Of a stretch of 64,000 nucleotides of DNA, positions 571 through 51,610 are shown one piece after another. The translations under genes and the position numbers were made by a program. Position 1 is the stretch's first letter, and every line of letters starts with the position of its first letter. Source of the stretch: Yuukianura sp. NJ FZ-2021. Taxonomy: Eukaryota. The notes under the pieces are model-generated. The model saw nothing but the letters and a program-made list of their open reading frames with translations, did no database searches and was not told the DNA's origin. The stretch spans positions 7,874,001 to 7,938,000 of the forward strand of contig CM102283.1 in NCBI GenBank assembly GCA_046563655.1, in the 5' to 3' direction.

Positions 571-3500
571 GCTTATGTCGTAGTCCGTTTCGGATCCGGG
601 CGTCGTTACTACAAAACTGGTTCGTTGAACCGTATTTGGAGTTACAGTAACTTTTGTACCGAATGTGACTAAATCCGGAGTTCGTTGATCCAACATATCC
701 GACTTTGTAGGGAGCTGTGAAAAGTCTAACCGAGGTGGCCGCGGTGGAGCAACTATCAAAAAATAATCAACAAAAAACCAATTCAATTAACCTGGTCCGA
801 TTACTTACTAAAAAAAACTAAACTGCGGTTTTACCTGGTTGAACTTGTTGATTATTGTTAATTACGTTGATGGAATGGTGGTGGGAAGTGGCAGACGTAA
901 CTGGTGGAGTAGCTGGTGGGGTTGAAGAAGTATTTGGGTGGGGCAGGGTGGCTCTTTTGATCAGACGACTCCAAGTGGCAACATTGATGTTAAGCTGAGT
1001 CGGGCGCGGAACGTTCTTTCCTTGCTGTTTGAATATTTTTCTTTGTCGCTGCAGTTTTGGTTTCCGTGAGATCATTGGATTCAAAAACTTTATCTGTAAA
1101 ATTTTATCAAAAATATCACTAAAACTGTTCAAATACGTTGAAAAATTCAAAATTTCAAGATTTTACCTCTGCAAAAAGGAGTCCTTGCGGTTCCAATTGC
1201 AGGGCCATGCCATGTCGAACATCATCAATGAATTCTTCTAGACGTAAAAACTTGACAGCACACAGGGAGCGCCAATCTCTCCAGTAAATGTCAATCTCCA
1301 GTTCTCTTGACTTGTCCAACTCAATTGAAAATCGCTGATCCCAGGCTTGTTGAGAACACGGTTTCCAAGCTGTTTGAGCCACAGGTTGGTTGTCCAGCTT
1401 CAGCACGGCCATAATCTCATCTGAAAATTTATCCACAGGGATTAAGATCAACCTTTCACTTTTTACATTTTTCATGTTCAAGATCAGCATCACAGTGCTA
1501 TGGATTACTTGTCAGCGTTAGTTTAGGATTAAGTGCATGTCCAAGCTTATGAGTGCCAAATCCAACAAAAACTGCCAAGGCTTTTTAGTGCATTTAAGCA
1601 GTTTGAGAGTGAAACTTACTCCGACGTTCCTCCAGTAAAAATGAATAGGAATCAAAAGCAGCACCGAAGAAGCATCCACTTCCCATTGAATCAGAACCAG
1701 CAGAATCAAAAACATAATTTACAGGTAAGACTTACATGCGCATGCGTATTAAAAAGTGCGAAAAAGTTAAAAAAAAATACCCAATAGCTAAAAAAAGGAG
1801 AATTAAAAAAAAATCAAACACCCAAAAATTGAAATCCCAACGTTGGCAACAAGGAAGCAGAAAATCGGAAGAAGTGAAAATATCAAATTCAAAAACAACT
1901 AAAAAAAATATCACTCCACGTAGTTTTCAACCCAATTTCCAAATCGTTTCGTCTCTCCGATTTCAAAATTTGAATTCCCTGCAAATCGAATTCCTTTTCT
2001 CCCGCCAATTTCCTGATTATGTTCCGCAGTTAAGTTAGATCAAAGATTATAACTTACTGCTCGTTTCATCTTTGATGCTATAAGATTTAGATGAGCTCCT
2101 TCCCGTTACTCCTTTGACAAATGATTTGAGATCCGCCTGACTGCTGCCATCTCTTGACTTTGTTCTTCCTGGAACATCTTCCAGCAAATCCTGACATCCC
2201 ATGAGCCGTACTTCCAGTTTCCCTGTCACCGTTGCACATTTGGCCAATTGGCGCTGAATCACAGACTGGGTGGATTGTGAGCCAGGGGAATTCCCCTTGT
2301 TGGAGCTGAATGGTTGTAGAGCAGTATATGAAAATGGACTGGACATGTTAGGGACTGTTGGGGAAGTGGCTGAATCCAGCTCATGTTTCAATTCCATTGA
2401 TTTTCTGGAGTCTCCGCGTACTTCACCCAGTTTTGTTTCAAGCGATAGACGGAGGAGGTCAATCTTCTGACTCGATTCCAGCAAATTACTTTGAGCCTAT
2501 AAAAACAAAACAAACAAAAATTAAAAAGAAACTCCAAAATGATGATTTCTGATATTATTTTTCCTAACCATCCTCGCTAGAATTTAACCTAAAATAAAAT
2601 TTTGAAACAAGCCATAATTCTCAAAATTCAGTTTATTTTTTCGGATAACAATCAAATCCTTTTCGTTTCAAATCCAAATTTTTCGACTCCTTGTCGTTTT
2701 TCCCGCGACTCCAACGAATACGCCCTTCTCCTAACACTGCTCATGGTATCCAAGGTTCCAGCACCTCCAGAATTATCCAGCAGTTGGAAGTAACTTCTGC
2801 AGTGATTGCATGGACATGCCCGATTTTTCGGTGGTCCTGGAATATGATGTCCCGGTTTTCGAAAACATTTTACAAAACTTCCAAACTTCGCGCCAGTTTC
2901 AACACTGGGCTCAGTCGTTCGTCCAACAGCATTTCCAGTAGTACTAGCAGGAAGGAATGGCGGAATAACTTGATTTCCATATTGCTCTACGTCTGACAGT
3001 ATTTCAGATCCAAACGAAAACGATTGTCTCTTTGACCTCGCAAGTAGGCCAACGTCTTCCTTATCCTTCACCAGCAAATTTTCATTCTTCGGTGTTTGCT
3101 CCACTTCTAAAAAGCAAAAACCAAATTCAAAATCAAACATTTCAAAAACAAAATCCAAAAATCTTCAATATTCTCAAATTGAATTGAAATTTCATACCTG
3201 CAGCTCTCTGTGGTGCATTTGAAAATGGATATTTGAGCCACCATTTTTGTTGAGTCGGAATTCTTTGATTTGTAAATGAAGCTTCACTCATGCTATCTCG
3301 GAGGTCAACTTCAAACGAACTTGTGTCGTTTTCGTCTTCTTTTCCAGGAACCGGAAACGGACGAAACCGAACTCCATCAAACGAACTCATTCCGCTGCTA
3401 GTCGCTATTGAATTACCCGTTTCATTTCTGCTAATCGAAATCCTGGAATTATCTTCTTTTGTTCCAGCAATAGTCGAAGCATATCCTCCAGTAGTTGTAC

Positions 3501-6500
3501 TTAGCCAATCAGAAGAGTCAATTGACGAGTAGCTCTCGTCCTTACGCGGATTAATTTGAACTGGAAGTGATACTTGGTGGACAGGTACTCTTGTTTGGAG
3601 TTTAACTGAATCAAACAGCCCAGATTGCTCTACTCCCGATCTGATCAGATTCCCGAGTAGTTCCATCTTATCAACCGACAGCGGCTTGGAGCCACGCCGT
3701 TCCGAAGTTTTCTGAGCCTGACTTCCTTCGGGCCGTGTCGTATTCAAATGTGTCGGTACTTGATGCTTCTTATGATGATGAAGTATTTTATATTCCGGTG
3801 ATTCGTAAACCGTTTGCGGTGATGATGAAGAAATATCGACTTCCGTATCCTCAGCATTCGTCGAAGTTCCTTCCGATCCGGTACAGTACACGTCAATATG
3901 GATAGTCCTTGGTTGATTCGTACTAAAAACCAAAAAAATAAATCAAAACACTTTTTCAAAAAACTTCAACTTTATTTTTAAAAACTTACTTTTGTTGCAA
4001 ACGAATCGGAGGAGAAGACTTGGCTCTTTTACCATCTTTGTCTCTTCTAGGCGACTTCCTATTGTACGAATCGATACTTTCGCTGCGCAGATCCGACCCC
4101 GAACCATCGCTTCTGTAAATCAGCGATTCTCTCACTTCCGGTTTCCAGTGTTTCCGCAACTCAGTTTTCTGCAACTTGTGTCCACCCAAGCGTAGAGCAT
4201 GCGTTCCAGCAGATCTGACTGTCTGCGTTTCCGCATCTTGTAACACAACTGGTGGCATGGACATCTTAACAACCGGAAGTGGCTCAAATTCAGCAACTTC
4301 AGAACACAGCCTCTCATCACTTCTATTTCCCAGCCTAATACTGCAAGTAGTTTTGCTTGATGCAGGAGAAGTTACAGTTCTTGGTCCACTGGATGCTGAT
4401 GCTGAGCTAGTTCTATGCCTTGTACTATTTTCTGCTTGTCCAAACTTTTTAGCAGCATGGTCACTACTGTATCCAGAGTCCGCCAAAACTTCAATTCTGC
4501 GTACAGTTGGGCCCCAACTTTCAAATTTCTTAATTCCACTGTCATAGTTTCCTGTTTTTCCCAGTACTTCAGTTTGCGTCTTCTGCCAAGAATATTGAAC
4601 TTGAACATTCGGATTTGGGGAAGATGCTGGAATTTTTTGTGTCGCTGAAGATGAAAATGAAATACCAGTATTCGGTTGTGAAATTGTCAGTTGAGCATGG
4701 ACACACCAGTCGTCATCTGGATCTGTAGGAGGTTTCGGTGTTCGCGGATCGTCACTTGATCCAATTGACCAAGTATTTTGATCCATACCGTTGTAACCTA
4801 AGTATTTGCTATGAAATCACACCACGGAGCACCAAAAGTGTAAACTAATCGCACTTTTTACAACTAGGTCGCAAAAACTTGCAAAAACAACAACTTTTTG
4901 CACAAAAATTGCAAGAAAAACTGTACGACAGGCGTAACAAATGGGATCAGTGCTGGATAATCCGATCCCAGAAGTAGAATGATACTCTATGGCCTAACCT
5001 TCATAAGAAACCTATACCACACGAATGCTTGGCTATCGCCAAAATGCTGGGCAATCGCCAAAACTATTTTTATCATTACACATCTTCCCTTGACTGTTGC
5101 TGTTCAAACTCATTTGATCCAAAACAACATCAACATTCAACATCTGAAGTTGATTTGCATGTCTACTGTCTTCATCTTTACAACAAAACCGAAAAATCAG
5201 ACCTCCAGACTTTGTTCTTTCTTTAAATTCGTTTTCAAAAATTTAAATTCCCCGCCCCCAAAAATAAACAAACGTTCAGTCTTTGGTCATTGACTTTTCT
5301 TTAGTTTTCCCTACTCCTACCTTACTAACTTTTTAAAAAATCGCTGTTTCATGCCTTACCTCTTGGAGAGCCTTCTTGTCCACCGCTTTTGCGGATTGCA
5401 GCGTCCGGATAACATTTTTAGCTCCATCGACCATAGCTTTTTCAATTCTCAAACGATGACGAAGTTCTTCAATTCTCACTTCCATTGGAGCCACGCCCGA
5501 GAACTCTCCATCTACAAACAAACAAGATTCATAAATCACTTCATGTTGGTCCAACTGTCCAACAATCTCTTAGAGGTTAATTTTCTGGCATGTCGAGGTA
5601 ATCCATCTATTGCAATCCCAAAACTTCCAATTAACCATTGTGAACAGCATAGGCATGTGAGGTTCATCGATTACACGGCTTGAGATACAGAAAAAAAAGA
5701 ACCCAGTGGGACTCGAACCACTATCTCCTCAATCCAGGAAGAGGTCTAACCATTGAGCTATTAGGCACTAATCAGAATCACACTGGATGAAATTGGAAGG
5801 CTACCTTGGCGGTTAGCAGCACTATTTGACCTTAAAAAATGAACTTGGGAAGTATTTTGAACAGTACATTAGTTTATTTACCTTTGTTAAGTCGTGGTCC
5901 ATCCCCACCGCCTCCTCCTCCACCCGAATTGACAGCACGACTCAGTCGAGCCTTGTTAATTCTCATTCTCAGGTAATCAATCTTAGCTTTTGAGTCTTGT
6001 AACATTTGTTGAGCATCAGCCACGAGCTTTTTGTCCCGCCCACTACTGTAACTCTGGATCATGTTCTCTGCTCCATGCTTCACTTTCAGCTCAATGTTTA
6101 GCTGTTTCTCCAGTGACGAAATCCGCTCATCGATGACAGCCACGTTCGAATTCTCATTGGAAGTAGATTCTAAAAACACAAAAACAAACAAGTTAAGCAC
6201 ATCCCGCCAAAACTTTGAACAAGATTTAAAACTAGAATTTCATAGATAAAACTTACCATGGCCATTATCATTAGCAAATCCCAGAATAATTTGTGAGTCA
6301 AGTTCTTGTAACTCTGCCTGCATCTCTTGAATTTTCAAATTCGATTGCTTCACCAGCCCCGTCAACTCTCCCAAACTTTTACGATCTGTCGTAACTTCTC
6401 GTAGTTTTTCCGCTCCCTCTTTGATTTTCAGCTCTTTTCTAATTTCCTTGCGAATTAGTTCTTTCAACTCCTCCAGTTTTGCTGGAACTACTTGACCCGT

Positions 6501-9500
6501 GTCACCCATCTCCACTCCCAGACCGTACTTGTGACTCAAATCATACAAGGCTGGATGAGCAATGTAGTCTCCCTGAAATAGACAAGAACACAAACTATTA
6601 GCACTTATTTCGTCATTAGCTTAAAATTACTCTAGTGATACAAATTTAGCTGCTCCACTACTAAAACTGATAGCTTCAATGTCACTCCTCAAAAGTTCAA
6701 CCACCACGTCTCCGATAAAACACAAATGACTAAATGAATTATGAACTCTTTGTACAACGTGACACATACAACTTATTTTTCAGAAGTTAACCAATTGTGG
6801 TCTCCTTCGACACACAATTTTGGCTAAACAATTAACTTTTTAAATTAATTTACCACAAAGTAGTTGAGAGATCCAAGTTTGGCTGCTTGTCTCTGTTTCC
6901 CTCCAGCCATTCTGACAGTTGGAGGAGGAGTGGGCCAAGGTATACACATGAAATTCTCCATGACCAAAGTCATGTTTAGTCACTCCAAACAAAAAACTTA
7001 ACTTTCGCAAACTTTTAAAAAGTTAAATTGGCAACAATCTGAACAAATTGACCTTCAAAGTCAAAAAACTTGACCAAATCTGTCAGAGGGAAATTAACTT
7101 CCTAATCCTGACCAATCAAAATTGTCCATTCGTCAAGATCTAAAAACTGGCGCCAAAAATTAAAATCAAACTTTTAGCTTAAAAAAATCACACTTTTAGC
7201 TAAAGAGTCCCACTTTTAGCTAAAAAGTCACAATTTTTGGTACACAATCTTGCGTCAACAAAAATTTAGCAAATGACAACACAAAAACTTTGTAATTTGT
7301 AAAAATCCAAGTTGGTGACCAGAAAAGACCGGTCGTCACGGGTTCGGTGACCACTTTTGGCCCACTGTCGTTACTAAAATCACGAACTTGAAAACATCTT
7401 CTCAAATGTGTGTCAGCCACTTAGTGCAGAATCAAAGGAACAAAAAAATTAGTAAAATATTTGAAGATGAAGATGAAGGAGAGATTTTAACGGTTTTTTG
7501 TTACTACTGAATGAACTCGATGGATGTCTTTGACAACTGACATACTGCAACTACAAAGTTACTATGAACATGCAAGATCCAAGGGAGAGAGATGGGTCGT
7601 GTCCAACTGCCCTTAGCCAAGAAGTTGGTCTGTAATTTCTTGATTCTTCCAATAAATGTGTCAGTGGCGGACATTTGTAGGCAAAACGGGCAACTAAACT
7701 TCCACAACCAAAAAACTACTCTATCCAAGTCTTCTTTTTAAAAAAAAAACTGGCAGCACTGGGTGTCCTCTCTGTGTGATGCTGCTGAAGCTGAACTGTG
7801 AAAATTGTGTGTTGCTTCGCAAGTTGTTTTGAATTTGAATTGAATTCAAATCAAAAGGAGGGAGACATAACGTTACTCCATTGTATCACGGTGACTTTTG
7901 TCAGAATAATTTAGATGAAGATGCAAAATTGAGTCTAACTTAAGAAGTTCCCAGTGTAGTCGGTTGCTTAGGAGTGATTTGTTTGTGAATAGAATGGTGC
8001 AAGGTTTGTTGACTTGCGATTTTTTTAACAGGTTGGGTAATATACCTCATGTTTTGATTTTGCAAAAAAAAAGTATCTTTTCATTACGATGCATCGTAGC
8101 CGATTTTTAAATTTTGCATACAAGTTGGTACCAATTTTTCAGATTGCTACTAAATTGGTACTAATTTTTTTCTGTTTTTTGTTTGTCAAGAAGCGAGGTA
8201 GTACCCAACCTGTTAAAGAAAATTAACTTTTCGTTGTCAAGGAACCTTGGAATGGTGATTGTTAGGTGAAATGTGGTGGGACGGGAGATCATTTGCTATT
8301 AGGTATCCCATAATTATGAAAAGTCCTAGCTTGACTTGAATGTAAATTGAGGTGAGCAGGATTCCAAGTTATTCATTTAAACGCAAAAGACCTCAAGTCT
8401 TTTAGTACTACTAAATCTGGTAGGACAAGAAAAAATGAACAAAAAATTAATCACCTAATGTTGTTTAGGTGCAAATTAAAAAATTTTCGCTATATAAGTA
8501 AATCCTGGTTTCCCACTGACATAACAAAATTATAAAACAAGGGAGGAGCAGAAAATCTGTCAGAATTAAAAACAAACGGCGCCGAAAGTATGCAAAACAA
8601 AATTGAAATTGAAACTAAATCCTTCGAATATTTGCTGTAACTTTTTAAAATCTACAGATTTTCAAAGTTCCATCAAAGATTTTGAGACAATTCAAATAAA
8701 ATTTTTCCCAATCCTAGCATAAAAACTACAAAACTAACAAAACATTTACCAATTACCAAAAAGTTTGAAACTCCAAGTACCTTCTTTGCTGAGTTTTGAA
8801 TTTGAAGGACTGCAAGTACCAAAAAACTGCTCGACGTCAAAAATTGTTGAAGATTCTCAAATATTTCACTTTAACTAAACTTGAACTGTCCAATTTCCAA
8901 TTAGAAATTAAAAATTCACGGACGACGACACTCAACACAAGCCTTCTATTACCAAATTGCTGCCAACAAACCATGAAAGGTGTGGAAAATTGTTAATTTA
9001 GTAATTTAAGTGTAAACTAACCTATCAATTCTGATTGGCAATGAAGATGCTAAAGTTGCGAAATGAAAAGTCACACTAAAGAGGCAAAGATTTTGAAAAG
9101 TGTCCAAGAAATTGAATTGATTCGAGAGACTTTTCATTCCCATCTAATCAGTCAAGTAACAAAAAGACCAGTTTGATAGCTTTTTCAGTGTGTAGCCCTT
9201 GTCCCCATTGATTACATAACGAAAAAAACAAGTAACTTTGGACTTTATGTAATGTGAACTGGCAACTGAACTTATTCTGATGTTAGTAAGTACTTGTGGA
9301 CTGAGAATAGTAGTGAACTACACTGGACTTCGTCTTGGACATACTTTGGAACAGAAATATCCTTTTAGCTATCTAGTACTATCTCCTGGACGTGTCCCGG
9401 TTGTCGATAAAGAGACAATTGTTTTCCAAATCCGAAATAGAGACATGAACAAACAAAAAGTCATGAAGATTAAGGCGGCATCATCGTATTGTTTGTCCTA

Positions 9501-37300: not shown

Positions 37301-40300
37301 CCCAGAACGTAATGGAATATGGGGAACCCCAGTTCTTTCCAGGTAGGTGCCAGGCTATAACCGCTGTTTTAGATTTCCAAATTTTGAAAAACTGAAATTA
37401 TTGAAAAATTGAAGTACTTTTTTTTGAAATTTTTTGTAGGTAACTGTGTAGGTTACCTCGAAACGATACTGGAAGAGACGGACGAGGACTGTGAAGAGGA
37501 GGAGGGAAGTTCTGGTCGCCATTGGTGGACGCCTGATAGTGACACAGATACTGAATCCGTCATTCGAATTGATCCTGCCGCAGCACATACTGCCAGTACC
37601 GACCGCCAAAACCCGTCCACCATTCCGTCCTTTCAGAAGTTACAAAAGGACGGAACCAACTTTCCGTCCACTGGACTTCCGTCCATGGGAAGCCTCCTTA
37701 CCGAAAGTACTTCATCCCCCTCCTCTCCACCGTTCCATACGACTGCCAGTTCCAAGCCATTTGAAATGGAGAACTTGTATTTATTTGATCAATTGGATTT
37801 GGCTTTTGAAGAAACTTTGATGAAACCACGCAGAAGAACTGGATTTGCCTTTGAACCGGAACTGCACCTACCAATTCTGGAAAATCCCCAATTGGATGCT
37901 GAAAAAGAAGTTTCTGATGAAAATGTGCCAGAAGAAGCTCTAGAAGTTGGAAATTCCTGCCAATCAGATACTGCAGATGACCAGTTGACCTGTCAGGACG
38001 AGGTCAACGAAGATGCAAATGCAGAAGATGTAGAAGACGACGAGCAACCAGCAGTTGTCAACGAAGAAGATTTCTTCTGTTCATCGCAATCCTGTTCGGA
38101 AGATGAAAATTCCCTAAGTGAAACAGAATCTTCTGATGACTCTACAAGTACAAGTTCGGACGAAGATAAAAAGTCGGGAATCGTTTTAGCTGAATTTTCA
38201 ATGCAAAATTATCCAAACTCCAACGACGGTTGTGGTGAAATGTACAAAAACAGTCATGCGCATCCGCATCGACGCTCCTATGAAGCTCCCTCCAAGATTC
38301 GGTCGTTCCGAAGTTACGATAGTTTGAACAGCCTAATTGGAACGGAACTCCTTTTTTCAAATCCAGATACTTTTCCGTCCGTGGTCCAATCGACTGGAAA
38401 GCAATTCCAGGATGCTGGCAGCATTTTGGAGCTGGAAGGCAGTAGTACTGGAGAAACGAGTAGAAGTAGCAGTACGGAGGACAAGGTGGTTGCCAGTCGG
38501 AAGAATTCGGGTGAAGCTTCTAGTGAAAACCTATCAGAGGACAGTGGGATCCATGACCTCTTGCCATGTCAACAAATTACGCCTGAGGCGAGTCCTTATC
38601 AACCCAAGGCCGAATTTGCTCTAAATCCATTCATCTACTCTTCCGCTTCCGAGGACAGCTCAATGTTGAGTTATAATTATACTGGCAGTACTACTGGCGA
38701 GGTCATGGAAAACAAAAGTTTGGACTCAGATGGAGGTGTTGTTGTCAACGTCAATTGTGGCCAAGTCAACAATAATGAAGTTGGATCCACTCGTCCCCTG
38801 CTGGTCTTGGCCACCCAAACGACAAGTGAGAGTGGTTATATCACCGAACAGGTTACGCCGTCCACCAATATTATCGAAGATGGTTTCAATACAATCACCA
38901 CGACTACTTTCCATCATTATCAGTATCACCATTATACCAACAATAGACAAGAACCAGCGGGAGAAACTACTTTGGTGGATGTAAACAGGACAGAAGGTCT
39001 AGTGATGATTGAAAGTGGGCCAATGTCAACCTTGGGAAGTAGTGACGATGGAGCTTGTGAGTCGAGAGGGCTGACTAATCCTTCGCCTGAAGTGGAACAA
39101 CCAACATTAGTCCCAATGGGCTCTACACGAGGTGATTACTACGAGTCGGAGTTAAATTCTCTGCTACTTCTACTCCCTGTACCATTAGCACCGGGAGTAA
39201 GACTCCCTGTCCCAGTGGCAGAATCTAGGAGGGAAGTTATAGAAGTAAGGCGATCAAACAGCGTCCCATCTTCACCAACATCAACATCAAACTATGAAAC
39301 GAGAGAATATTGGCACGAGCAGTCCAGTCAACAACGTTCTGTCGACGAATTCAGTCAACCGTACTCATCATACAAACCGTATCCGACAAGTCTCAGTTTT
39401 AGTCAGGAGCAGCCAATATATCAGAATGTGCTTCCAGAAGTTCAGAAGTACAATCAGGACATAGAGTTCCCCAGGGTTCAGCAGCACAATCAGCACATCG
39501 AAGTCACCGAGGTTCGGCAGTATAATCAGCACATAGAGTTCCCCGAAGTTCAGCAGAGTAATCAGCACATCGAGGTCTCTGAGGCTCCGTATAAGCAGTA
39601 CATTGAGCATCCTGAGGTGCAGTACAAGCAGTACATTGAGCATTCCGAAGTTGCTGGGAAGATTTTGAGCGAGTGCCAGCATCCTCCTGCGGAAGAGGCT
39701 AATTTTGGACTGTTACCCGCCACCGACCTGGTGTTACCCGCAGTACCAGAACCAGTTGAACCCCGAACTTCGGAGGAGCCAGACTATGTTACTCTTGTGA
39801 GAAACGAAGAGGATGGGGGAAGAAGCTGCGTCGTACATGTACTACCCTCCCCAGTTGAAGTTTATCCTCTGGCAAGAGAAGACGTAATATACGATGCAGT
39901 CAATAGCTGGCCAAAAGTGGATCCAATTGTACCAAGTGGAGTGAGTACTAATCCGTTTTTAGAACAACAATTGGCGCCAATTTTAGAACAAGAGCAGCAA
40001 TTGCCGCCACTAGTTGGACAAAAATTGACATCAATAGCAGAAGAGGACATTGACATTATGCAAGTGGAGCCAGCAAGAGCCAGTTCACCTTCGGTCAGTA
40101 GTGTTCCAATACCTATAAAAACTTATGGTGGAGCAAGGAACAATGATGTGGCAGTATATTTGGTGCCAAGTGGGTCATCTAGAACGCCAAGTCCGACTGT
40201 CCCGAATCCATCAACGACAGTAAACGATCCAGAAACTGGTTCTGCCACGGGCTCACTAACGAAAACGAAAACAGTACACTTTAGTCCTGTTGTGTCTGAA

Positions 40301-43300
40301 ATCAGTTGGCGGGAAAGTTATGCCGAACCGTGTCCAGAAGACAATGATCCCGAATCTCCATACTACAATCCGAATGGACAAGAGCATCACGATGACCCGG
40401 ACGGTAACCATGGCGACATTGAGCCGATTGAAAAAGTACAAGTACATAGTCAAGTGCTATCAGAGCCTTTACCGATGGTCATTCCCAAGACAGAGAAAGA
40501 GCGATTGATGGCCCTTGAGCCCACTGCTGACGAACCACCGCGCATGTCCAGCGTACCGGATCTGGTCAGTCAGTGTGTCCCGAATACTGCGCAGCATCAA
40601 CAACAACAACAGAGTTTGCAGCATCATGATGAAGTTGACGCTTCTCCGCCGTTAGAGTTGAATGGAGACCAAGGTCGTCCTTATTACTTCCAACAACAAA
40701 TTTTTCCAGCAATGTTTGTGGCTACACCCAAGGAAGCAGCGGAAGTCAATCAAGTCCACTTTAAAAAGAATGGCAAGAAGGCCACCTATGTTGCCCCACC
40801 AACAATTCCCGCCAATGGTACTGCCAGTACTACTGCCCCACTCCCACCAAAATCTACCACCAAACCAACTTCTGGCAAAAGAGGAGCAGAAAAAGATGAA
40901 AGTGTTGCAAAAGAAACAAAATCCAAACCCGGTTTTTTTCAACGTCTTTCGAAAATCCGGCTCTCTGGTAGCAACAAAAACAAGCAACCAAAGACAAAAG
41001 TATTTCCAAAAGAAATTGAGCCCTTGAATGGTAGCAATAATCCGAAGGGAGAAGTGGCCGTAGGCCCTACGATTCTAAAGAAAGGGCCCCCCAGTCCCTT
41101 GGTGCTTCAAGACCACTTAACACCGTCACCACCAGACTCATCAATCAATCACAACGGAACCAAAGCAGCTCCACAGGCCAAAGAACATGACGAGTGCTCT
41201 GAAGCATTTGAAAATATCTTAGAAGAAATCGCTGGACTGAACACGATTTTGCAGCGACAACAATTTCCAGCAGGTTCTGGTCAACTGAACTCCAGCAGTG
41301 GCGGATCAAGCGGTGGCAAAAGATTATTTGCCGAAAGGAAACAATTTTTAATCAACCCAGAAACTCAGGCTGCTGACAAGAGTTCGACTACACTTGACTC
41401 CAAGTTGAGTCAATTCAAAGAGGAGGCGTCAAGGACCAGAGATCAAATTTCAAGGTCACATCCAGATCTGGAAACAATCGAAGAGCTGACGTCTCGGAGA
41501 CAACAACAACAGGGCGGGGGTTCGAGTCCTGGAGGACTCGATGACGTAACAATGAAAATAAAACCGGAATCGCCTGGTCGGGGTCGAACCGAAACGAAAA
41601 CGAATGAACGGGAGTGGTATCGTCTACTTCGGTCGGCTGCTGAGAAGTACTATCATGGTGGACGAAAAGCTGACGATCCAGTGGGACAGTCTACGGGTAT
41701 TGTTGAAACGGACTTGGACACGGGTGAGTCAGTGACCTTATTCTTTTTTGTTAGGTTATGATCAGGGATGTCAAAAATATTTAGTCTTCATGCCCGTAAT
41801 ATTCAGACCTGCCAAAAATATTTACTAAAAACCAGCTAAATATTTAAATAAGTGCAATATTTACTGAAAAAGGTTGAAATATTTACGAACTTAAGATTAA
41901 GGGCCGGGGTAAATAAATAAATATTAAATAACAAAAGAGCCGAAATATTGATTTTGTTAACATTACAGGCATGTGAATTACAGGCATATTTTTGGCCGGT
42001 CTGGTAATATTAAAAAAAAAATACCTCCGAGTTTTTGGTTAAAAATATTTATTTATTTGCCCATTCCCTGAATGTTAAGTTGAGTAAAACAGTTGGTCGA
42101 TTTTTAAAAAATATTTTTTTTATTCATATTTTGGGCGTTTTTGGTACATATTTTTGACAACCCTGGTTGTGATTAAGTGCTGATGAATGCTGAACATGAT
42201 GACGGATGGTGGTAGAGTTGACCTCTTGGAAGAAAGTGAGTGATGAGGTCACCGCTGCCTTTGATCATCCCATGAATCATTTCATAATCTATGAAAATTT
42301 TGGTTAGTTAGGAGAAAAAATTGTTATTGGAGCAAGGAAGTAGCGACAGCGAGACGCTTTGTACATTTTAATCTTGTAACGATGACAAGAAAGTCAATTT
42401 GAGTTTGTCCTGTTCAAAATCTTCATGGTTAAAGTTTAAACTTTAACGAGACGTGTCTGGTGCGTCATTTTGAAGCTTTTTGCGTCTCAGAACCAACAAG
42501 TTTCACTTATGTAACCAATTCACGGTTTTGTTAAATGTAAATTGTTCAACTTTTTATGCACGACCATGCTGTATAAAATTGGTTCCGCATTTAACATTCC
42601 TCAGTTTTTTTATTCAGTTAAAAGAATCAAATTTCATTTGGTTTTTTCCTTCTGATTTAGTTTCCATTTTAATTTTAGTTTTTTTATTTCGGTACATTTT
42701 TCACTTTTAGTAGTTTGCAGTTTTTTTTTTCGAAAAAGTGCACAAACTTGGTGCGAAGAGAGACATAATGAAGTTGATGTTTGTTGAAGAAGAAAAATCT
42801 GAAGATGCTTTTAGTCTAATTGAATTTAGACTGTCCTTGGAGAGACAGCTTTTTAGAAACAGACCACGCCCTGGTCGTTGTTCATTTGTAAATGGATCGA
42901 GACAGGAGAAATTTTAGGCTTTCCTTATGAGGGAGAGAAGTTTATGAGAAAATGGATGATTTCCTTGCGTGTTGTTTACAAATAAAATGTCCAATTTCTT
43001 AAAAACTTTTTTCTTTGATAAAGTTTTGTGTCCAAAAGTACAAACTTTGTACTGTTCAAAGTCCACTACAGTAAAAGAGCTCCATCATTTTCAAAAAGTT
43101 GTTTGAATTTTTGAAAAAGAGTTGAGAAAGTGCAGAAGTGACAGGTTAGCTCATGTGGTGAGACGGTTTTACAGTGGAAAGTTTTAGTTGAAGTTCAACG
43201 GAAAGAGTTGGTTCAATGTTAGTTTTTAAAAAGTTTAAAAAAAAACTTTCTTATAAAAAAAAAACTTCTTTTTGACGAAAAAGGAAAAACATTATGTGTG

Positions 43301-46300
43301 CGAACAGTTTGCGAGTGGAGTCTGCACATTATCAAAGCTTAACGTGTAATGTCAATGTCCAAATTTTAAAATCCGTCTTTTTTAAAATTGTGTTTAGAGG
43401 TTGTTCACTTTTTTAGAAAAGTAAACATGCACGCTGTGACACTTTTAGAACTTGAAGTGGCTGGTTTTGTGTCAGGAGTAAACAAGTAAACAGTTTGACT
43501 TTTGACAATGGTGTTTTTGTTACAATTGAAATATAATGGCTGGAGCAAATTAAAACCAAGTGAGAGTAATTGGTTAATAACGGCCTTTACTTTCATTTTT
43601 ATGGTGCAGGAGAACGTTAACGTTAAGAATGTAACAATTCCAGCGCCAGATTTGAATTGTGTTGTGCTGGATTTGAATTTTGTGGCGCTGGAATTTTGTT
43701 TTGAAGGGAGAAAAGCTGTTTTAAAGGGCTAGAATGGAAGCACAACATGCTGGAGCTGGATCATGAGAAAGTAGCAGCAGTGACTTCCGGTTGTGTTTTT
43801 GTGGGCGCGCGTGCCATTAAAGCAAAGCTGTACATCGTTCTTAAGCTGTCAAGCGATGTAAGAGTAACTGTTAAGCCACAGCCGGAGTCCATATGTTGTC
43901 CCTGACGCTTAAATTACCATTTTCCGCTTCTACGACTTTTGTATTTGAAGCTTCACTTCATGCTTTAACTAGGAAGTCCAGAAAATTTTAAGAAATTTAT
44001 GTTTTAACTTGAATTTCAAGGTTTTAAAGCAGTTTTCGACGACGTTTGGAAAATAAAGTTCATTCAAAGAGCAAAACCTGTGCTTTGGTTGCACTTTGTA
44101 AAAATTTGGTTTTGGCGAATTTTGATTTGTAAAAAAATAGTATGGTGGCACGTTTTGGTCAAGAAAAAAATTTTCTCAGAAACTGTTTTAAAACTTTTTT
44201 TTTAATGTAGAAAGTGAAACCACCGAAAATAATTCATTTTCTGAAAATTTTGAATCAGTGGGTGGTGCTAAGAGATTTGTAAGCTGTTAGAGAAACGTGG
44301 GCAAAAATTTTCGACATTTTTTTTTCTTTTTCGCACTACACAAATCATTTTCAAGCGTTTTTAGTCAAAATTTTACTTTATACGACTTTAGGATATTTGT
44401 GAAGTTCGGTTAAAAGTTAAATGTTAGCCTAACCTAACTGCGGAAGTGTTAATGGAAAGAGATTAGAAGTTACATTAGGGAAGCGATTAAAATCTTAAGG
44501 AACTTGTGAACTGTCACCCTGAATGCAATGCAAACAGTTTGAAAAATTTCCTTTTTTTGAAGATGCGTTTTCTAAATAAGGAGTGATGGTTTTGGTGGTA
44601 ATGGAGTAGCGACAGTAGTGTAAAAAAGGCTCTTTCATTTGAATTATTTCAATGCCACCAAAGGGAAAACCATTATGGTAATTCAAGACTATTCAACTTT
44701 CAGCTTCAACGTTCCTAATGGCATCATTATTTCTGTTTTTGTGAAAAAAGATTTTTTGTGGGATAATTCAATTTGTTCCTTAAAAAACCGTAACTGTACT
44801 ACTTTTCAAGATCTTGGTTTTTCAACAACGCATGGATTTCAAACAGCCTTTTTCTTAAATCCGGGAAAGGAAATGTCAGATCCAGTTTAGCTTGGAGCGA
44901 AAAGATCATGTTCTTTTTAGTTTCAACTTTGTTGTTTTGTTTTGAACAGACATGATACTGCTGCTAGGAACAAAATTTCAACTAATTTGGAACTTTGATC
45001 TTCGCATGAGTGAAGTTCAAGTTCTCTTCAGATTTTATCAAACTTGAAAACTTCGAACAAAAAGAAACTTAAAGAACAAAAGTTTTCACAAAATTTCAAT
45101 TTCTTCCAAACTTAATTGATTTTGTTAAACTTGGAGTTGAAAATGCACTGAAGCTTCACTTTTTAGTTGTAATTTTTCATTTTGATTTTTTGCTGTGTTT
45201 TTTCTGCTCGTTCAAAGACGTTCTTAGAACATGATTTTCTATTTTTGTTAACCATAAAAACATAACTGTTGCTGGAAAAATGAGTTTTTTAGTACTTTTG
45301 AATCGTAATCTTTTTGAAGAGTGAAGATGAAATGGAAAACAGATCCCTTGTTAAGGTTCTGGTAGTTGGAAGACATATTTTAGTAGAAGTGGGATTAAAA
45401 TTGAGGAATCTGGTACTGAAGATGACACTCTAGAATAGCCCATTCCCATACTTAACATTAGTTAGAAGATCATTCACTTTACCAATTTCAAGGTTGGTGA
45501 TGATGCTAATTCCTTCAAAAATATGCAGGATACACCCACTTCTGAACATTTTTACTGGCAACTCACCAACATCTTTGGTCCACCATTAGCAAAACATGCA
45601 AACATACAAAATTTTAAATATGCTATATTAATATTACCAAAAATGAAAAAAAAAAAACAATTGAAAATTTTAATTTGATCTTATCTTAATTTTTAATTTT
45701 TATCAATAATTGATAAACTTCAAACTTTCGTTGCAACTTTTAGTTTTGTATCTGAAAGTTTCAATTCTACTCTGAAAGTTTTCTGGTCTTGAACAGTGGA
45801 ATTGAACAGTTGTTTAAAAAGATTTTTGTCTCTGTTGCATCTTTTTAGAAAAAATGTTGAAGAGCATCTTGTACTTTGAAAAGTTTAAAGTTTAGTGACT
45901 CTCCCCTTCCGTCGTTCCGTCTGCCAAAGTTAACTTTATTCTGAGTGCGTTGCAGGTCCTAAATCCACCAATAGGAGTGGAGAAAGACTTATTTTTGTCG
46001 GTGGCGTCAGTCTGTCGGTTTGAGAAGCCTGTGAAGATCGTGGGTGATTTTTATTTTTATGTGAATGCAGAGTTGTATAAGACGTCGACAGAAGAGTTAA
46101 ATGTACGACTGCACAAGAAAAGTATAAAGTTGAAGATGTTTCTCATGGGAAAAGAAAAAACACGGAGGATGAGCAGTTTCAATTTGAAACTTTCAAATTG
46201 GATCCATTTCTGTTATTGCGAATTTCCGTTTTTTTTTGCAGCTCCACCTCCGTCAAAGGATTCCGAAATTCTGTTGAGAGTTTGAATTTCTTAGTTTTTT

Positions 46301-49300
46301 TTCGTTTGGATTCTGTCAAAGTAGGAAGTGTTTTCAATTTCAGCTGAAATAGGAAGTGTTTGTTGCATTTTTGGGTTTGCGTTAGAGTAAGGCGAGGTCT
46401 GTTGACAGTTTGATTGGGTGACATTGAGATATGTCCGGGTAGAGTTTACTGCGTAGTCAAGTTTCAATTTTTTTTGAAATTTCGAAACAAGTTTGGATCT
46501 GGACCAGGATATTTTAGGGTTGAAGTGTAAACGGGAGTGAAAGTTGGGTAGATTCCAGGAATTTTCGTGAAAATTTTCCTTGAAAAGTTTCCACAGCTTC
46601 CAGATCTCAAAACTTTCACTTTCAGGATCGCACTTTCTCCGTCTCTTCTGTTTTTGTGCGTTTGAACAAGGGTGAATGACCTGGAACAAGGCTGCTGCGT
46701 GTGCAGCTCGTTTCAAAGCATAGGTTAGGCTTAAGCTAAGCTAAACCTAAGCTTGAGAGGAACCTTTTCTGCTGTGATCGTATCGTACCCGGATAGACTT
46801 GTTTTGATCCACGGCGACTTCTGGGGAAAGTTGATACCGCGACGATTCTTCTGTTCAAGTTGGCTCATGGTCCTTGTTTTCTTTTATAAACAACAACTTT
46901 CTTTTTTGAAACACGCCAAATGCATTTTCGACTTTCTCTTTTCCTTTTCATGAACTTGCAGAAGATGTTCAGGTTGTTAGTGCGAATCGAAGTCTCCCCG
47001 GGGAAATTCTGGAGGGCATGCAGCGATGCAGCATGAAAGCAAGGCTAAGGGCTTAAAGTCATTCATTGATTTTCCTATTATGTGCGGATCGGCGGTGCCA
47101 CGGCCGCGGTGGAGTGTTTTAGAAATTTGAGCGCGTCTTGTTCGTGATGCACTGTCTAATAATACCTACAGCTATTTTTGGAAATAGCTTTTGTTCTTTT
47201 TCGAAAACGAGAGCCAAAAGGAGAGATGAAAAAGAAAATGAAAAGTGAAAACGTGTTATTACGAATAGCAATTGAATGACTCAAGAAAGGAATTTTACGA
47301 GACAGGTTTTATTACCTTGAGGTTTTTTTCAATAACGTAGAAAACGAGTCTGGAATTGTCGTTTGAACGAGCTAAAGAACATTAAGTTTTTCCAGTCCAG
47401 GAAATGATGGGGACCAATGTCAATGTCAGGCCTAGCACTATTTTAAGTTTAGTTTTTCAAAAATTTCTGTTACTAGATTCTGTGAAAATCTGAAGATTTT
47501 GGGCTAAAGCACGGAAAATTTCTTAATTTTTTGTTAGTTTTTGAAGGTCGGGCTGCTTTTTATAAGAAAATGTTTATGTTAGGTTAGTTTTAGTTGAGAA
47601 ACTTGAAAGTTAATGTTAGTTGATGTTGTTGTTGTTTTTTCCAGGAACAAGTCGAGAGTTGCTGGATGCTGAATTGGTAATTCTGGATGACCTGGCCATG
47701 TCCCCACCCCTCCCGACGTCACTCCCCCCATCAGGGGGTGGTGGTGGTGCTAAGGCTCAGAGCTTAACTAACCTAACCAGTGGACGTGCACTAAAGTTGT
47801 CCATAGCACCAGATCATACTTCAGATGGAACTGATCCAGAGGCAGAAGAGAGAGCCAAATCCCTCGAATTCTTGTTGGATGAAAAGCAGAAGAGCGCTGC
47901 AAGCGTAAGTTTCTGAAAATTAATAAACTTGAGCGTTTTGGAATTCCAAAAATGTTTCAAAAATTCCCCAAAGCATTTATAACAACTTTTATATAGACAA
48001 ACTGCCGCTTCGAGTGGATGTATTTTGTACATTTTGTTTGAACAGCGCGGTAAATTAGACGCCGAATCACGGAACTCTTTCAGCGATTAATTTATTTTTC
48101 CTTAATCTGCTCCAGCGATCTTAAGCAGTTTCGGTTTCATTGCACAATAAATCTTGGTAGTTTAAAGGGACTGAATGCTGAAGAATGTTAAAATTACGTG
48201 CAAAGTTCCATTTACAGCACCACATAAACTGTTTCTGTTTGGAGTTTACTTTTCATGACAGATTTAATATGTTCAAACTGCAACATTTTCTGAAGCTTTC
48301 GGCTTAAATGTGAAGGTTTCTGCATTCTGCAGCAGAAACGGTTTGGATTTTTGGGATATAAATTATCGACATGCTTAGATTTTTCCTTTTTTGGTTGCCA
48401 TGACGCCATTACAGTTTAGACCTGTTTGTATAAACTAAAAGTGCAAATGGAAAAATGGCAGTGATGACAGGTTGGAGCAGTTTTAAATCCGTGTGAATTT
48501 ATCTTATGTTGCATACCCAGTACTGCCAAATATATCCAGCACATTTTCCATCTTTGAGAAACGGCAAAGCTTTGGCTTAAGTTGGGACTAATGGAATTTG
48601 ACTTTGAGCTGCTTTTATCCGGCATCACTTTCGAACTTTTCCTCAAATTGGTGAAAATTTGACAAAATTTTGAAACTTGTAGCGATTTAGAAAGTTAACC
48701 GAGGTGTTAGGTTGTAAATAAAGCTTTCAGGAATTCATTGATGCTTTAGCTGAACTTTGGAATGAGTTTAACTTTAATGTTTGTTTTTTATGTTTGTTTT
48801 TACAGCCGCCTGAGAACAAATTGCAACAAGACAATCGACATTTATCAGAACATGAGCTCCGTGTGGAACGGTCACTGCAGAGGATCAACGTGCCGGAATG
48901 GTACCGACGACATAGTTACAGAAGCAAAAGTGCTGAAAGAGATCGGTCCGAACTGAAAAAAGACACGCCATTGGTCAGTTCCACTGGAACTACTGCACTC
49001 CAGCTACTCAAGAGAAACGACTATGGAAGCTCGGGCGGATTAGCTGGAGGTAAAATTTGAAAAATCGAACATATTTTTAATGTAATAGAATGTGGTGGGG
49101 AAAATTTTTTTTAGTTTTTTCTACATGCTTTTGGTGAATGATTATGGAAGAAAATTATGACTTTGGTTTCTGCAAAAATCTTTACTTCAAAATCTAACAT
49201 CATGTTTTCATCTAATCATTTTTTGTAAGAGCTAAAAAAATTGAAATATTTTTACTGTGTGTTTGGTTGCAGGTTGGGCAGGACTGTCGGCCTATCGAAC

Positions 49301-50884
49301 TCCGTCACTCTCCAGTCTTGGCAATGGTGGTCTGACGACTGGTAAGTTTTCAAAAAAAAAGTTTTGGAAATTTTGAATTTTAAAAGTGTCCAATTTCGTT
49401 AATCAGGCTAATTACTACTTGGACGTTCCAGTTTTTCAAAGTAATAGCTAACCTAGATGCAGTTTTTAATTTTTCTGTTATTTACACCTTCATAAACCCA
49501 GTTTTTGACGTGATGCTTTCCATATTTTTGTAACAAAAAATTTAGTTTTTCGTGTCCAAACTAAGCTAGCTTTTCTAGACAGATGAAACATAGCGTGACG
49601 ATGCTCTTTGTTAGTTTGGTTGCATTCCATCATGACTTTTTTTTACAAGTCTCCTCAATAACTATTAAGCCATGACGTGCAGATCTCATTTTTTTGGACC
49701 AATTGAACATTAGTGAGCATCCGGACCACAATGATGGATCATTCCGTGTCTTTGTCGAGTCATTTTGCAAGCTTATTTATCAGTAGGTGTTTGGGTTTGG
49801 TCAACATTCAGCAGTTCCATATTTGCTCATCTCTTAATTCAATTCTAACTTTAGTATAGTCTTCCAGTCGACTTTGTTTTGACGAGCTGTTTCCGTCTCT
49901 GGTTGAAAAAAAAGTATGTGAGAGACTAGCCAAAAAGTTCCTTGAGTTTTTTGAGTGACAGTTTCCTAATTAAAGTGAGTTTGAACCAATTTTGAAAATT
50001 GGACGGAGCGACGACGCGTCACGCCGGAAGTAAAAATGTTGAGTTGTGCGAAATTTTGAAATTTTGAATTTTTGTGATTTTAGGATCACTGAACCGATCC
50101 AACTTTGTTCGAGGACGACCGGCAACAATGAGTGCTACGAGGTCATCCAAGGAGTCACTTCTCAGTCCCAGTTCAACGGCGAGTCAAAGTCCATCGGCCT
50201 TTGAACGTTCCTCTTTCACGTATGAAAACATCCAGAAATCATAAAAAGTAGCGATTTTGAAATTTTGCAATGAATTTTTTGGATTTTTGCAGATACGGTA
50301 TGCCTCTGACGATGACACGCTTTGGAAAAGGCCGACTGAGCTCTACGTCCGGTACAAGTCCAGCCAGCGGTTCGTCTCCGTCAACGCCAGGCCAAACTTC
50401 ATCTTTGAGTGCCTATGTGAAGCAACCTTATTTGGGCTGGAGGTCACAAGAAAAGCTCCAAACTGTTGGAACCGCCGCGGCGACAACGTCGTCAAGCGGC
50501 CTAAGGCTGTCAACTTATCGTCCTCCAGCGGAACGCCTAGCTGCTGACATGCTAACGAGACAAAAGAAGACTCCGACTAGACCCACCGGAAGTGACCGAC
50601 CACCGTTGCCGAAATGGCCGTCCAGAACTGGATCTGACAAGGCCAAGACAATGTCCCTGCCACCCCAACCAGTGTCAGAGGAGATCCTGTTGTCACATGA
50701 CTTTCCACGTACAGCGTCTCCTTCAATACACGACTCTATCAAGGAAGTGACGGATGCCATAAGTGAATTTGTAACCAATGGACACGAGGGGCCACCCAAA
50801 CCGCAACCGAGAACAAAGAATGTCAAAAAACAGGCGCTTTGGTTTGAAAGTTCGTTTGTAGGAAAGAAGACGCAGACGCAGTGA
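34357..50884 (+). CDS. Large, mostly low-complexity uncharacterised protein, about 1969 aa. Exons 34357-34620, 37282-37342, 37440-41723, 47645-47904, 48806-49049, 49273-49341, 50084-50219, 50293-50884
   Basis: A 1450-codon ORF plus seven further exons with phase-compatible GT-AG junctions (5910 nt, in frame). Higher-complexity islands: YLETILEE, VHFSPVVSEISWRE, RAKSLEFLLD, PPENKLQ..SEHELRVERSLQRINVPEWY, QPYLGWRSQEKL, IHDSIKEVTDAI, WFESSFVG. Confidence 0.8.
35513..35824 (-). CDS. Small putative secreted protein (103 aa) nested antisense in intron 1 of the large gene
   Basis: MKTSLRLLIFLFSVEIMISA resembles a signal peptide and is followed by two copies of AFPFP(E/D)TTPW(P/S)TEKS. A candidate 5'UTR intron (donor near 35951, acceptor near 35857) and a TATA box lie upstream. 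Confidence 0.7.
   Translation of the reverse strand: MKTSLRLLIFLFSVEIMISAFPFPETTPWPTEKSSSAFPFPDTTPWSTEKSVERKKTTTPSTELQVLKLILDNDKKILKFLKTVEDPNSKSIKVTDQGQQKLN
35976..36013 (-). promoter_or_regulatory. Candidate TATA box plus Inr-like element for the nested secreted-peptide gene
   Basis: TATAAAAA at 36013-36006 and ACAGTT about 30 nt downstream on the minus strand. Confidence 0.5.
39436..39652 (+). repeat. Coding tandem repeat (33-36 bp, 11-12 aa, about 6 copies) inside the giant exon
   Basis: EVQKYNQDIEFP RVQQHNQHIEVT EVRQYNQHIEFP EVQQSNQHIEVS EAPYKQYIEHP EVQYKQYIEHS. Confidence 0.85.
41763..42165. mobile_element. hAT-type MITE (outer)
   Basis: TIR CAGGGATGTCAAAAATAT / ATATTTTTGACAACCCTG; 8-bp TSD GTTATGAT / GTTGTGAT (one mismatch). 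Confidence 0.8.
41804..42003. mobile_element. hAT-type MITE nested inside the previous MITE
   Basis: TIR CAGACCTGCCAAAAATAT / ATATTTTTGGCCGGTCTG; exact 8-bp TSD GTAATATT at 41796-41803 and 42004-42011. Confidence 0.8.
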
Positions 50885-51610
50885 GAATTTAGTGAGTAAT
50901 GGAGCATACCACACACGTCAGAATCCAGTTTTGACTTGCTCTCCTTGCTTCTAGTTAGTAGATAATCGTTGTTTCTATTTTTTAATCAAGCTAGTTAGTT
51001 TAATTACAAAAATGGAAGCAACGGGTAAGTATAATTGTAAGCTAATGCTAAACTAAAAATCGCAGACGCAAGGCATTTAAAATTAATCTTCCTCTATACA
51101 CTAAACTAACAATCAGTTTACTAACAAATTAAGATTAATTGTTATTAAATTTTCATTTTAGTTTATTCTGTATAATACACTTTATAACTTTCTTCTTTAA
51201 CCACAAAGTTTTATTTTAAATCTATATTATTTAAATAATGCCATCGCCATCCTATCTTGGAGGATTTAAAACAGTAATTTTTAGAATTTAAATTCTTTTG
51301 TTGCAAAAAATGTTAGCAAAGTTATCAAGTTCTGCCAAAAATAAGAGATTGTTTTTGACCTTATTGCTTTTGGGTCACTTGTTACAATAAATTGTTTAAA
51401 AACGCCTAATTTTGGATTTCGCGTCGAAATAATTAGTGTCCATGACAGCAGTGTACCTGATACACACTTCAAGTTTGCATAACTCACCGTTTGTTTCAGA
51501 GTCGTCGTCAATAATAAATTGAGTTGCGCGAAGAGGTGCGTTGTTCGTTTTTTTTTCTGAGCAGCCACCACTCAGTTTGTGAAGTGTTTCGTTGGCCATT
51601 TTGAAAAAAG

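Follow-up and report, generated by a model that had tools for sequence, protein, structure and literature searches.

A three-exon gene of an uncharacterised insect family, probably independent, lying on the host strand within the PKN intron that interrupts the third HR1 repeat in Yuukianura sp.

Amongst the closest described systems are the nested genes of Drosophila melanogaster, of which 71.27% lie on the strand opposite to that of the host, according to a published survey (Lee and Chang 2013; PMC3814207). Amongst the same-strand nested genes of that species, 72.53% consist of a single exon, a bias that the authors of the survey read as a sign of selection against mis-splicing (PMC3814207), and simple arithmetic on these percentages leaves nested genes that are both on the host strand and interrupted by introns at ~8% of all nested genes. 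The locus described here belongs to this last class. It lies in a 64,000-nucleotide (nt) stretch of DNA from Yuukianura sp. NJ FZ-2021 (GenBank assembly GCA_046563655.1, contig CM102283.1, positions 7,874,001 to 7,938,000 of the forward strand), hereafter called the window, within which an initial annotation, made without database searches, had noticed an open reading frame (ORF) of 658 amino acids (aa) in three exons. This ORF sits on the host strand between the two exons of a PKN gene that encode the third HR1 repeat (HR1c), an arrangement that the annotation called the rarer one, in agreement with the D. melanogaster percentages. The analysis presented here shows that the ORF is a real coding gene, and the evidence taken together makes it probable that it codes for a protein independently of PKN, from within the intron by which the third HR1 repeat of that kinase is divided.

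All features of the nested gene and of PKN are on the minus strand of the window. Three minus-strand stop-to-stop ORFs, at 3986..4816 (276 aa), 3142..3942 (266 aa) and 2652..3164 (170 aa), supply the exons 4786..3990, 3922..3198 and 3106..2652, which together amount to 1,977 nt, or 658 codons and a TGA. Every coordinate proposed for the ORF by the initial annotation was reproduced, and the parts of the gene are as follows.

3990..4786, minus strand: coding exon 1 of the nested gene, 797 nt, beginning with the ATG at 4786..4784 and ending in phase 2; it carries the N-terminal family motifs
3923..3989, minus strand: intron 1 of the nested gene, 67 nt, GT..AG, with a T-rich acceptor tract; its position is common to the related locus L011
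3198..3922, minus strand: coding exon 2 of the nested gene, 725 nt, ending in phase 1; it begins just 5' of P-R-T-[VI]-H-I-D-V-Y-C-T-G and also contains S-P-Q-T-V-Y-E-S
3107..3197, minus strand: intron 2 of the nested gene, 91 nt, GT..AG; the database protein P0001 reads across this junction
2652..3106, minus strand: coding exon 3 of the nested gene, with the module of K-F-G, KPGHH and C-x-C-x-x-C, the R-x-R-x-x-S motif, and the TGA at 2654..2652

Both donors (after 3990 and 3198) continue with GT, and both acceptors (before 3922 and 3106) consist of a T-rich tract and an AG, with a pyrimidine fraction of 0.70-0.75. An in-frame TGA at 4819..4817 stands 30 nt 5' of the ATG. The three exons, their canonical splice sites and the intact frame of 658 aa are thus plain from the sequence.

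Homology searches show that the gene is real. In what follows, database proteins (224 in total) carry P-numbers, and the related loci on metagenome contigs are L001-L012. Exon 3 alone matched P0001 (E 4.5e-31), a protein of 361 aa that runs uninterrupted through the equivalents of exons 2 and 3 and is the nearest relative in protein searches, with 48% identity over exons 2-3. An exhaustive search with P0001 returned 128 representative proteins at E<=1e-3, and a search with a profile of 15 full-length members (A1) returned 181. When a hidden Markov model (HMM) from an alignment of 86 full-length members (A2) was run against the 2,709 six-frame ORFs of at least 15 aa in the 64-kb window, only the three exon ORFs matched, in colinear order (exon 1 at model positions 23-164, E 7e-9; exon 2 at 328-433, E 3e-20; exon 3 at 654-718, E 7e-17), the corresponding domain E-values in the alignment being 1.9e-11, 3.5e-24 and 2.1e-19. 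The alignment with P0077 is free of gaps over the junction of exons 1 and 2, that with P0001 is free of gaps over the junction of exons 2 and 3, and the three-exon layout recurs in L011, which at the DNA level is the closest relative. The reality of the gene is thus borne out by the profile and by relatives that span both junctions. Exon 1 searched alone against longer proteins found no match; its homology emerged only through the full-length relatives and the profile.

Named matches to A1 are mostly entries of the type 'uncharacterized protein LOC...' or low-complexity misnomers ('dentin sialophosphoprotein', 'mucin-21', 'flocculation protein FLO11'). Their sources are beetles, Hymenoptera, cockroaches, Orthoptera, stick insects, two mayflies, a hemipteran, a lacewing and a single fly (Hermetia), three of these lineages having been checked. 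Pfam returned no match for the three exons (E<=1), which show no HR1, C2-like or kinase similarity, nor for P0001 or the 15 full-length members; the family profile found 0 matches at E<=1 amongst PDB sequences; and a literature search found nothing on this orphan family or on any gene nested in PKN, a paper on delorean that was matched for an intron of Pkn being without the word 'nested'. An 'ITPR-interacting domain', suggested by arthropod clusters in two ESM Atlas searches (best scores 0.79 and 0.84), was rejected as below a usable level and without Pfam support. Judged by its sequence, the window protein is a divergent new member of a predicted, uncharacterised family of winged insects. Two intron architectures were observed amongst the loci: L001-L008 and L012 have two coding exons, with a break ~30 codons before the H-I-D-V-Y motif, and the window and L009-L011 have three, with breaks just before the H-I-D-V-Y motif and before the C-terminal module.

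The host exons were read from the sequence and then checked by translation.

6257..6572, minus strand: PKN exon encoding HR1a (Pfam HR1, E 1e-11), ending in phase 1
5882..6169, minus strand: PKN exon encoding HR1b (Pfam HR1, E 8e-20), ending in phase 1
5360..5511, minus strand: PKN exon encoding the 5' half of HR1c (Pfam HR1, E 8e-9, profile positions 1-37 of 67), ending in phase 0
2497..5359, minus strand: host PKN intron of 2,863 nt, enclosing the whole nested gene
2047..2496, minus strand: PKN exon encoding the 3' half of HR1c and a linker, starting at 2496 in phase 0 (HR1, E 4e-3, profile positions 38-58); the open frame extends as far as 2047
1155..1511, minus strand: C2-like piece of PKN, from the Pfam scan

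Since the HR1 profile is matched at positions 1-37 before the intron 5359..2497 and at 38-58 after it, this intron splits the third HR1 repeat, as the initial annotation had it. The host exon coordinates given there also stand, with the start of the HR1a exon at 6572 as the sole correction. The nested ATG (4786), the stop (2652) and a poly(A) signal (AATAAA, 2637..2632) all fall within the intron, on the host strand. The exon start at 2496 recurs at the equivalent position in fused database models from ants and a cockroach. In the preceding PKN intron, between the HR1b exon and the exon for the 5' half of HR1c, a tRNA-like element of 73 nt was observed at 5697..5769 on the minus strand; ARAGORN calls it tRNA-Ser(gga), it falls below the Rfam gathering score, and it occurs as a single copy in the window. 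No tRNA was called in L011, L009 or L010, and the equivalent intron measures 132 nt in L011 versus 370 nt in the window. The element is probably a lineage-specific tRNA-derived insertion or pseudogene.

Whether relatives of the gene also sit in the Pkn HR1c intron, a point raised by the initial annotation, was examined in 12 loci obtained by scanning metagenome contigs with A2 (a scan with P0185 as the sole query returned nothing), which were then searched by tblastn with the PKN exons of the window and the nested protein. PKN flanks on the same strand were found in 8 of the 12. In four loci (L011, L009, L005, L006) a single strand carries, in this order, HR1 exons, the family gene, the 3' half of HR1c and C2; in L010 and L007 the family gene precedes the 3' half of HR1c and C2; and in L008 and L012 it comes after the 5' half of HR1c. 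L001 is too short for nesting to be judged. Protein identity between the window and L011 is 86-94% for the PKN exons and 41-52% for the nested protein. Two independent lines of evidence, the contigs and the fused database models described below, which place the family gene directly behind the exon for the 5' half of HR1c or directly ahead of that for the 3' half, show the same arrangement in distant insects (cockroach, beetle, hymenopteran and the lineage of the window). Nesting in the HR1c-splitting intron is therefore old, and it may not be universal in the family. As regards spacing, wherever the nested stop and the exon for the 3' half of HR1c can both be seen, which is the case in seven places (window 2497..2651; L011 4495..4699; also L009, L010, L005, L006 and L007), the stop lies ~155-470 nt 5' of that exon, close to the 3' end of the intron, and the distance from the exon for the 5' half of HR1c to the nested start varies from ~440 to 2,200 nt.

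The relatives and the flanks of the ORF point to a start and an end of its own. Amongst 86 relatives bearing the N-terminal motif, 80 have this motif 8-55 residues after an initial Met that very often opens M-Y-G; the remaining six comprise two with longer N-termini lacking HR1 and four fused models. The 215 nt before the nested ATG contain no ATG at all, a condition reached in 0.44% of 5,000 shuffles in a test made post hoc, and the next 355 nt upstream hold 11. A candidate start region, a candidate promoter-proximal element and a candidate poly(A) signal can be placed as follows.

4940..4982, minus strand: putative start region of the nested transcript; it contains the only initiator (Inr)-like TCATTC in the 573 nt 5' of the ATG, and with this region begins a block of 42 nt that is also conserved in L011
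5025..5072, minus strand: upstream conserved block, a candidate promoter-proximal element, with a tandem 21-nt motif in overlapping copies at 5063..5043 and 5045..5025 (the second copy recognised by eye)
2632..2637, minus strand: putative poly(A) signal AATAAA, 15 nt past the stop; the only AATAAA or ATTAAA before the PKN acceptor, and followed by a T/GT-rich stretch

The TCATTC hexamer marks the upstream edge of the ATG-free stretch. When the 573-nt upstream region was compared with the 12 loci, the two best matches both fell in the equivalent region of L011, colinear and at similar spacing: window 4981-4940 against L011 2216-2257 (78.6% over 42 nt, E 0.001) and window 5072-5054 against L011 2136-2154 (94.7% over 19 nt, E 0.046). 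No TATA box, DRE, Motif 1, E-box or MTE was found in these 573 nt, and the tandem motif at 5025..5063, which is in part conserved in L011, matched no known promoter motif. In L011 an AATAAA follows 36 nt past the stop; the 155 nt downstream of the nested stop in the window share no clear conserved block with any of the 12 loci. On this layout the gene would be transcribed from its own promoter within the 573 nt between the PKN exon 5511..5360 and the ATG, probably near position 4980, its transcript would be spliced at 3990/3922 and 3198/3106, and the AATAAA (2637..2632), which precedes the PKN acceptor by ~135 nt, would mark its end. A nested poly(A) site inside the host intron would mean that PKN transcription must read through it and that the whole nested gene must be spliced out. 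Of the two models left standing by the initial annotation, that of an independent nested gene is well supported by the conserved Met, the ATG-free leader, the upstream blocks, the AATAAA and the nested donors, neither of which can be joined in frame to the PKN exon at 2496.

Several observations weigh against this reading. The transcription start, the splicing and the poly(A) site in this species are all deduced from the sequence. The upstream region offers one Inr-like hexamer, with no TATA box and no downstream promoter element (DPE) at the right distance; just one relative, L011, is close enough for footprinting, and the test of the ATG-free stretch was, as said, post hoc. In three loci (L002-L004) no PKN exon (E<=0.01) was found in 1.5-3.3 kb of downstream flank or in as much as 5.5 kb of upstream flank, nor do these flanks show any other obvious coding ORF; there the gene may not be nested, or the intron may be much larger. 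The window holds an acceptor in frame with the phase-1 donors of PKN, and L011 likewise has an AG in frame with them, 29 nt before its ATG and behind a pyrimidine tract that looks good by eye. In D. melanogaster, pkn is reported to possess a fourth start site from which the Rho-binding N-terminus is not encoded (PMC4059237). Lastly, nine database models do fuse the nested gene with PKN, and two kinase-fused ones from different orders nearly share a break point at K-F-G.

The fused models make up 9 of the 224 family proteins and come from beetles, a wasp, ants and a cockroach. In five of them the HR1 repeats come first (P0130 from Asbolus, P0131, P0134 from Dendroctonus, P0144 from Holotrichia and P0179 from Vespula); the last PKN piece is the 5' half of HR1c in all five, and the five junctions all differ, one lying 2 codons before the family Met, one after the Met and one running through the leader. 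The other four are fused on the kinase side (P0187 from the ant Ooceraea, P0220 from the ant Lasius, P0216 from the cockroach Diploptera, and P0029) and pass into the 3' half of HR1c and C2, with the kinase in three of the four, the join falling at the residue equivalent to 2496 in all four. The species-named fusions (four HR1-first, three kinase-side) are all submitter annotations and not RefSeq LOC models, and none of the 'LOC'-named rows of the A1 search carries an HR1 or kinase Pfam family. Because their junctions are inconsistent, the nine models are probably annotation artefacts. P0187 and P0216 break at nearly the same point, just after K-F-G; a conserved intron at this point was considered and ruled out, K-F-G and KPGHH being contiguous in every one of the 23 short genomic ORFs from relatives.

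A first alternative, an improbable one, makes the three exons the tail of a kinase-less PKN isoform. If the donor at 5882 or that at 6257 were spliced to position 4797 and the transcript ended at the nested poly(A) signal, the outcome would be HR1a, with or without HR1b, followed by the 658-aa tail, as a Rho/Rac-binding decoy or scaffold and as either a main or a minor product. It depends on one further feature.

4798..4799, minus strand: candidate acceptor AG, 11 nt before the ATG, after which the exon would begin at 4797; pyrimidine fraction 0.55; no counterpart in the L011 alignment

The frame arithmetic of the initial annotation is right: the joins 5882->4797 and 6257->4797 are in frame and free of stops, and the join 5360->4797 is out of frame, where it meets a stop after ~48 codons. 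A same-strand poly(A) signal within a host intron could in principle serve host transcripts, and the five HR1-first database models do place HR1 repeats ahead of the family protein. Those models, however, all retain the exon for the 5' half of HR1c that the proposed isoform skips, besides differing in their junctions and, where named, being submitter annotations. The acceptor is also weak, as had been remarked from the start, with 0.55 pyrimidines in the 20 nt upstream versus 0.65-0.80 at the six acceptors in use, and the position of the AG is not conserved (11 nt before the ATG in the window versus 29 nt in L011). An AG in frame is expected by chance about once in three, and the 30 nt between the upstream TGA and the ATG contain a pair of AGs, of which one suits a donor in phase 1; with two available, one in the right phase is unremarkable and not beyond chance. 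Furthermore, the N-terminal motif follows closely on an initial Met of the protein itself in 80 of 86 relatives, and no HR1 match is found in any of the 215 proteins other than the fused models. The idea of an HR1a-HR1b fusion, as originally put forward, thus keeps its correct frame, and loses ground to a weak, unconserved acceptor and to the Met of the relatives, and none of the tests made here supports it.

A second alternative, for which we see very little probability, treats the nested promoter as an internal promoter of PKN, from which the nested N-terminus would be joined at 2496 to C2 and kinase without HR1a and HR1b. Exactly this layout occurs in four of the 224 proteins (P0187, P0220, P0216 and P0029), joined at the start of the exon for the 3' half of HR1c, and the breaks of P0187 and P0216 nearly coincide just after K-F-G. 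For pkn of D. melanogaster, four transcription starts are described that each have a separate start of translation, and the fourth is unable to encode the Rho-binding N-terminus (PMC4059237). In the window, by contrast, neither nested donor (3990, 3198) shares its frame with the PKN acceptor at 2496, and a join in frame would need a cryptic donor at the Val codon after K-F-G-S-F, which reads as a poor donor consensus; all 23 short genomic ORFs run on from K-F-G to KPGHH without a conserved intron, and all three species-named models are submitter annotations. That the gene is an intact-looking and silent relic is scarcely credible at all, given a frame intact over 658 codons, canonical sites at both introns, retention of all the family motifs, and the same structure in L011 despite 41-52% identity of the nested protein versus 86-94% for the PKN exons, values that indicate long divergence with the frame held open.

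With the independent gene as the preferred reading, the family can be described by its motifs. Invariant in the 86 sequences are an N-terminal W-x-V-H/R-A-Q/E, DSGY, T-C-S-I, a stretch of 12 residues and S-P-Q-T-V-F-E, and a C-terminal module of K-F-G ... KPGHH-GP-x-KNP-C-x-C-x-x-C. The window protein carries the N-terminal block (W-x-V-[HR]-A-[QE], Y-x-W, DSGY, T-C-S-I) in exon 1, its motif starting at residue 27 and so inside the 8-55 range of the relatives, and has P-R-T-[VI]-H-I-D-V-Y-C-T-G and then S/T-P-Q-T-V-[FY]-E, columns that are invariant in the 86 sequences, at the start of exon 2. The C-x-C-x-x-C lies within 30 residues in 197 of 197 proteins with PG[HN]H, and R-x-R-x-x-[ST] comes next in 173 of the 187 proteins whose tail is long enough, the window protein being included in both counts. 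The window protein has a one-residue insertion after HHI, between HH and GP, that it shares with only 10 of the 224 proteins. The middle block of the profile (S-W-K-D-T; S-D-S-F-E-Y-x-x-S-x-D-R-x-R-I; A2 ~433-650) is unaligned in it, in a region where the close relatives P0001 and P0003 share other motifs. Serine makes up 13.7% of its residues. An AlphaFold2 model of the relative P0054, the shortest full-length member, computed with the 86 sequences, has a mean predicted local distance difference test score (pLDDT) of 55.6 and a predicted template modelling score (pTM) of 0.25, with 264 of 526 residues below pLDDT 50 and only three short confident elements; compared with 48,161 chains by VIA-align, its best match (Z 2.4) was a single helix, and no usable match was obtained. 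The family thus comprises largely disordered proteins, rich in serine, whose common ground is a set of short invariant motifs.

The conserved motifs suggest what such a protein could do, and it should be kept in mind that the zinc knuckle, the kinase site and the link with PKN are all read from motifs. The C-terminal module, with its two His and C-x-C-x-x-C, is possibly a small zinc-binding knuckle, and R-x-R-x-x-S is a likely target of a basophilic kinase of the AGC type. The R-x-R-x-x-S consensus fits AGC kinases, the group that includes PKN. Guessing from this anatomy, the product would be a phospho-regulated adaptor or scaffold working through short linear motifs, and the long co-residence of the two genes suggests that it may be functionally linked with the PKN pathway. 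A broader reading, to which we give a low but not negligible probability, would make the PKN locus of winged insects a conserved two-gene unit, in which the nested protein acts in the PKN pathway (e.g., as a substrate or regulator through R-x-R-x-x-S) and the nested promoter and poly(A) site also shape the output of PKN. If this were true, HR1-only decoys would arise by intronic polyadenylation, or HR1-less kinase forms from the nested promoter, and the nine fused models and the fourth pkn start site of D. melanogaster would reflect such output. Curators could split the nine fused models or, should the fusions be real, take them as pointers to PKN isoforms not yet recognised.

Elsewhere in the window, a long run of ORFs at 37388..64000 on the plus strand with REJ, PLAT and EGF Pfam domains resembles a PKD1-like (polycystin/REJ) gene, and this run includes a 1,457-aa ORF at 37388..41761 without a Pfam match.

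Set against known systems, the nested gene is ordinary in kind, and its relatives are already predicted in many insect genomes. Example relatives are LOC108744656 of Agrilus planipennis (P0021), LOC119652767 of Hermetia illucens (P0212) and the 'dentin sialophosphoprotein' P0017 of Nicrophorus vespilloides. The window protein shares with these the order of conserved motifs from the N- to the C-terminus and a similar length (658 aa versus ~630-830 aa), and with the insect family at large a serine-rich, largely disordered composition and the lack of a Pfam family; it differs in that its gene is divided into three coding exons, two being the usual number on related contigs. Rhophilin and rhotekin are HR1-only Rho effectors beside the PKN/PRK kinases, and they would be resembled only under the fusion model, as an HR1a-HR1b protein without a kinase. 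With the PKN/PRK kinases themselves the nested protein shares no HR1, C2 or kinase similarity, the link to PKN being positional. For the family there is neither a Pfam model nor a relative of solved structure, and the literature search produced no paper on it, yet a handful of its motifs are invariant from mayflies to beetles. The conserved nesting and the fused database models are useful by-products of its description.

The comparison with the same-strand nested genes of D. melanogaster brings out both likeness and difference. Like them, the window gene lies wholly within one host intron and on the host strand, and it evolves faster than its host, the identities to L011 being those given above, in keeping with the section of the survey entitled 'Nested Genes Evolve Faster' (PMC3814207). 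Unlike them, since they are mostly single-exon and many of them young (PMC3814207), it has two introns, and its type of nesting is common to gene models of a cockroach, a beetle and a hymenopteran. Same-strand nesting of genes with introns is a class thought to be disfavoured by selection (PMC3814207), yet here the pair has been kept together; and since it has been kept in the same HR1c-splitting intron, it offers a good natural case of how a host reads through a nested promoter and poly(A) site.

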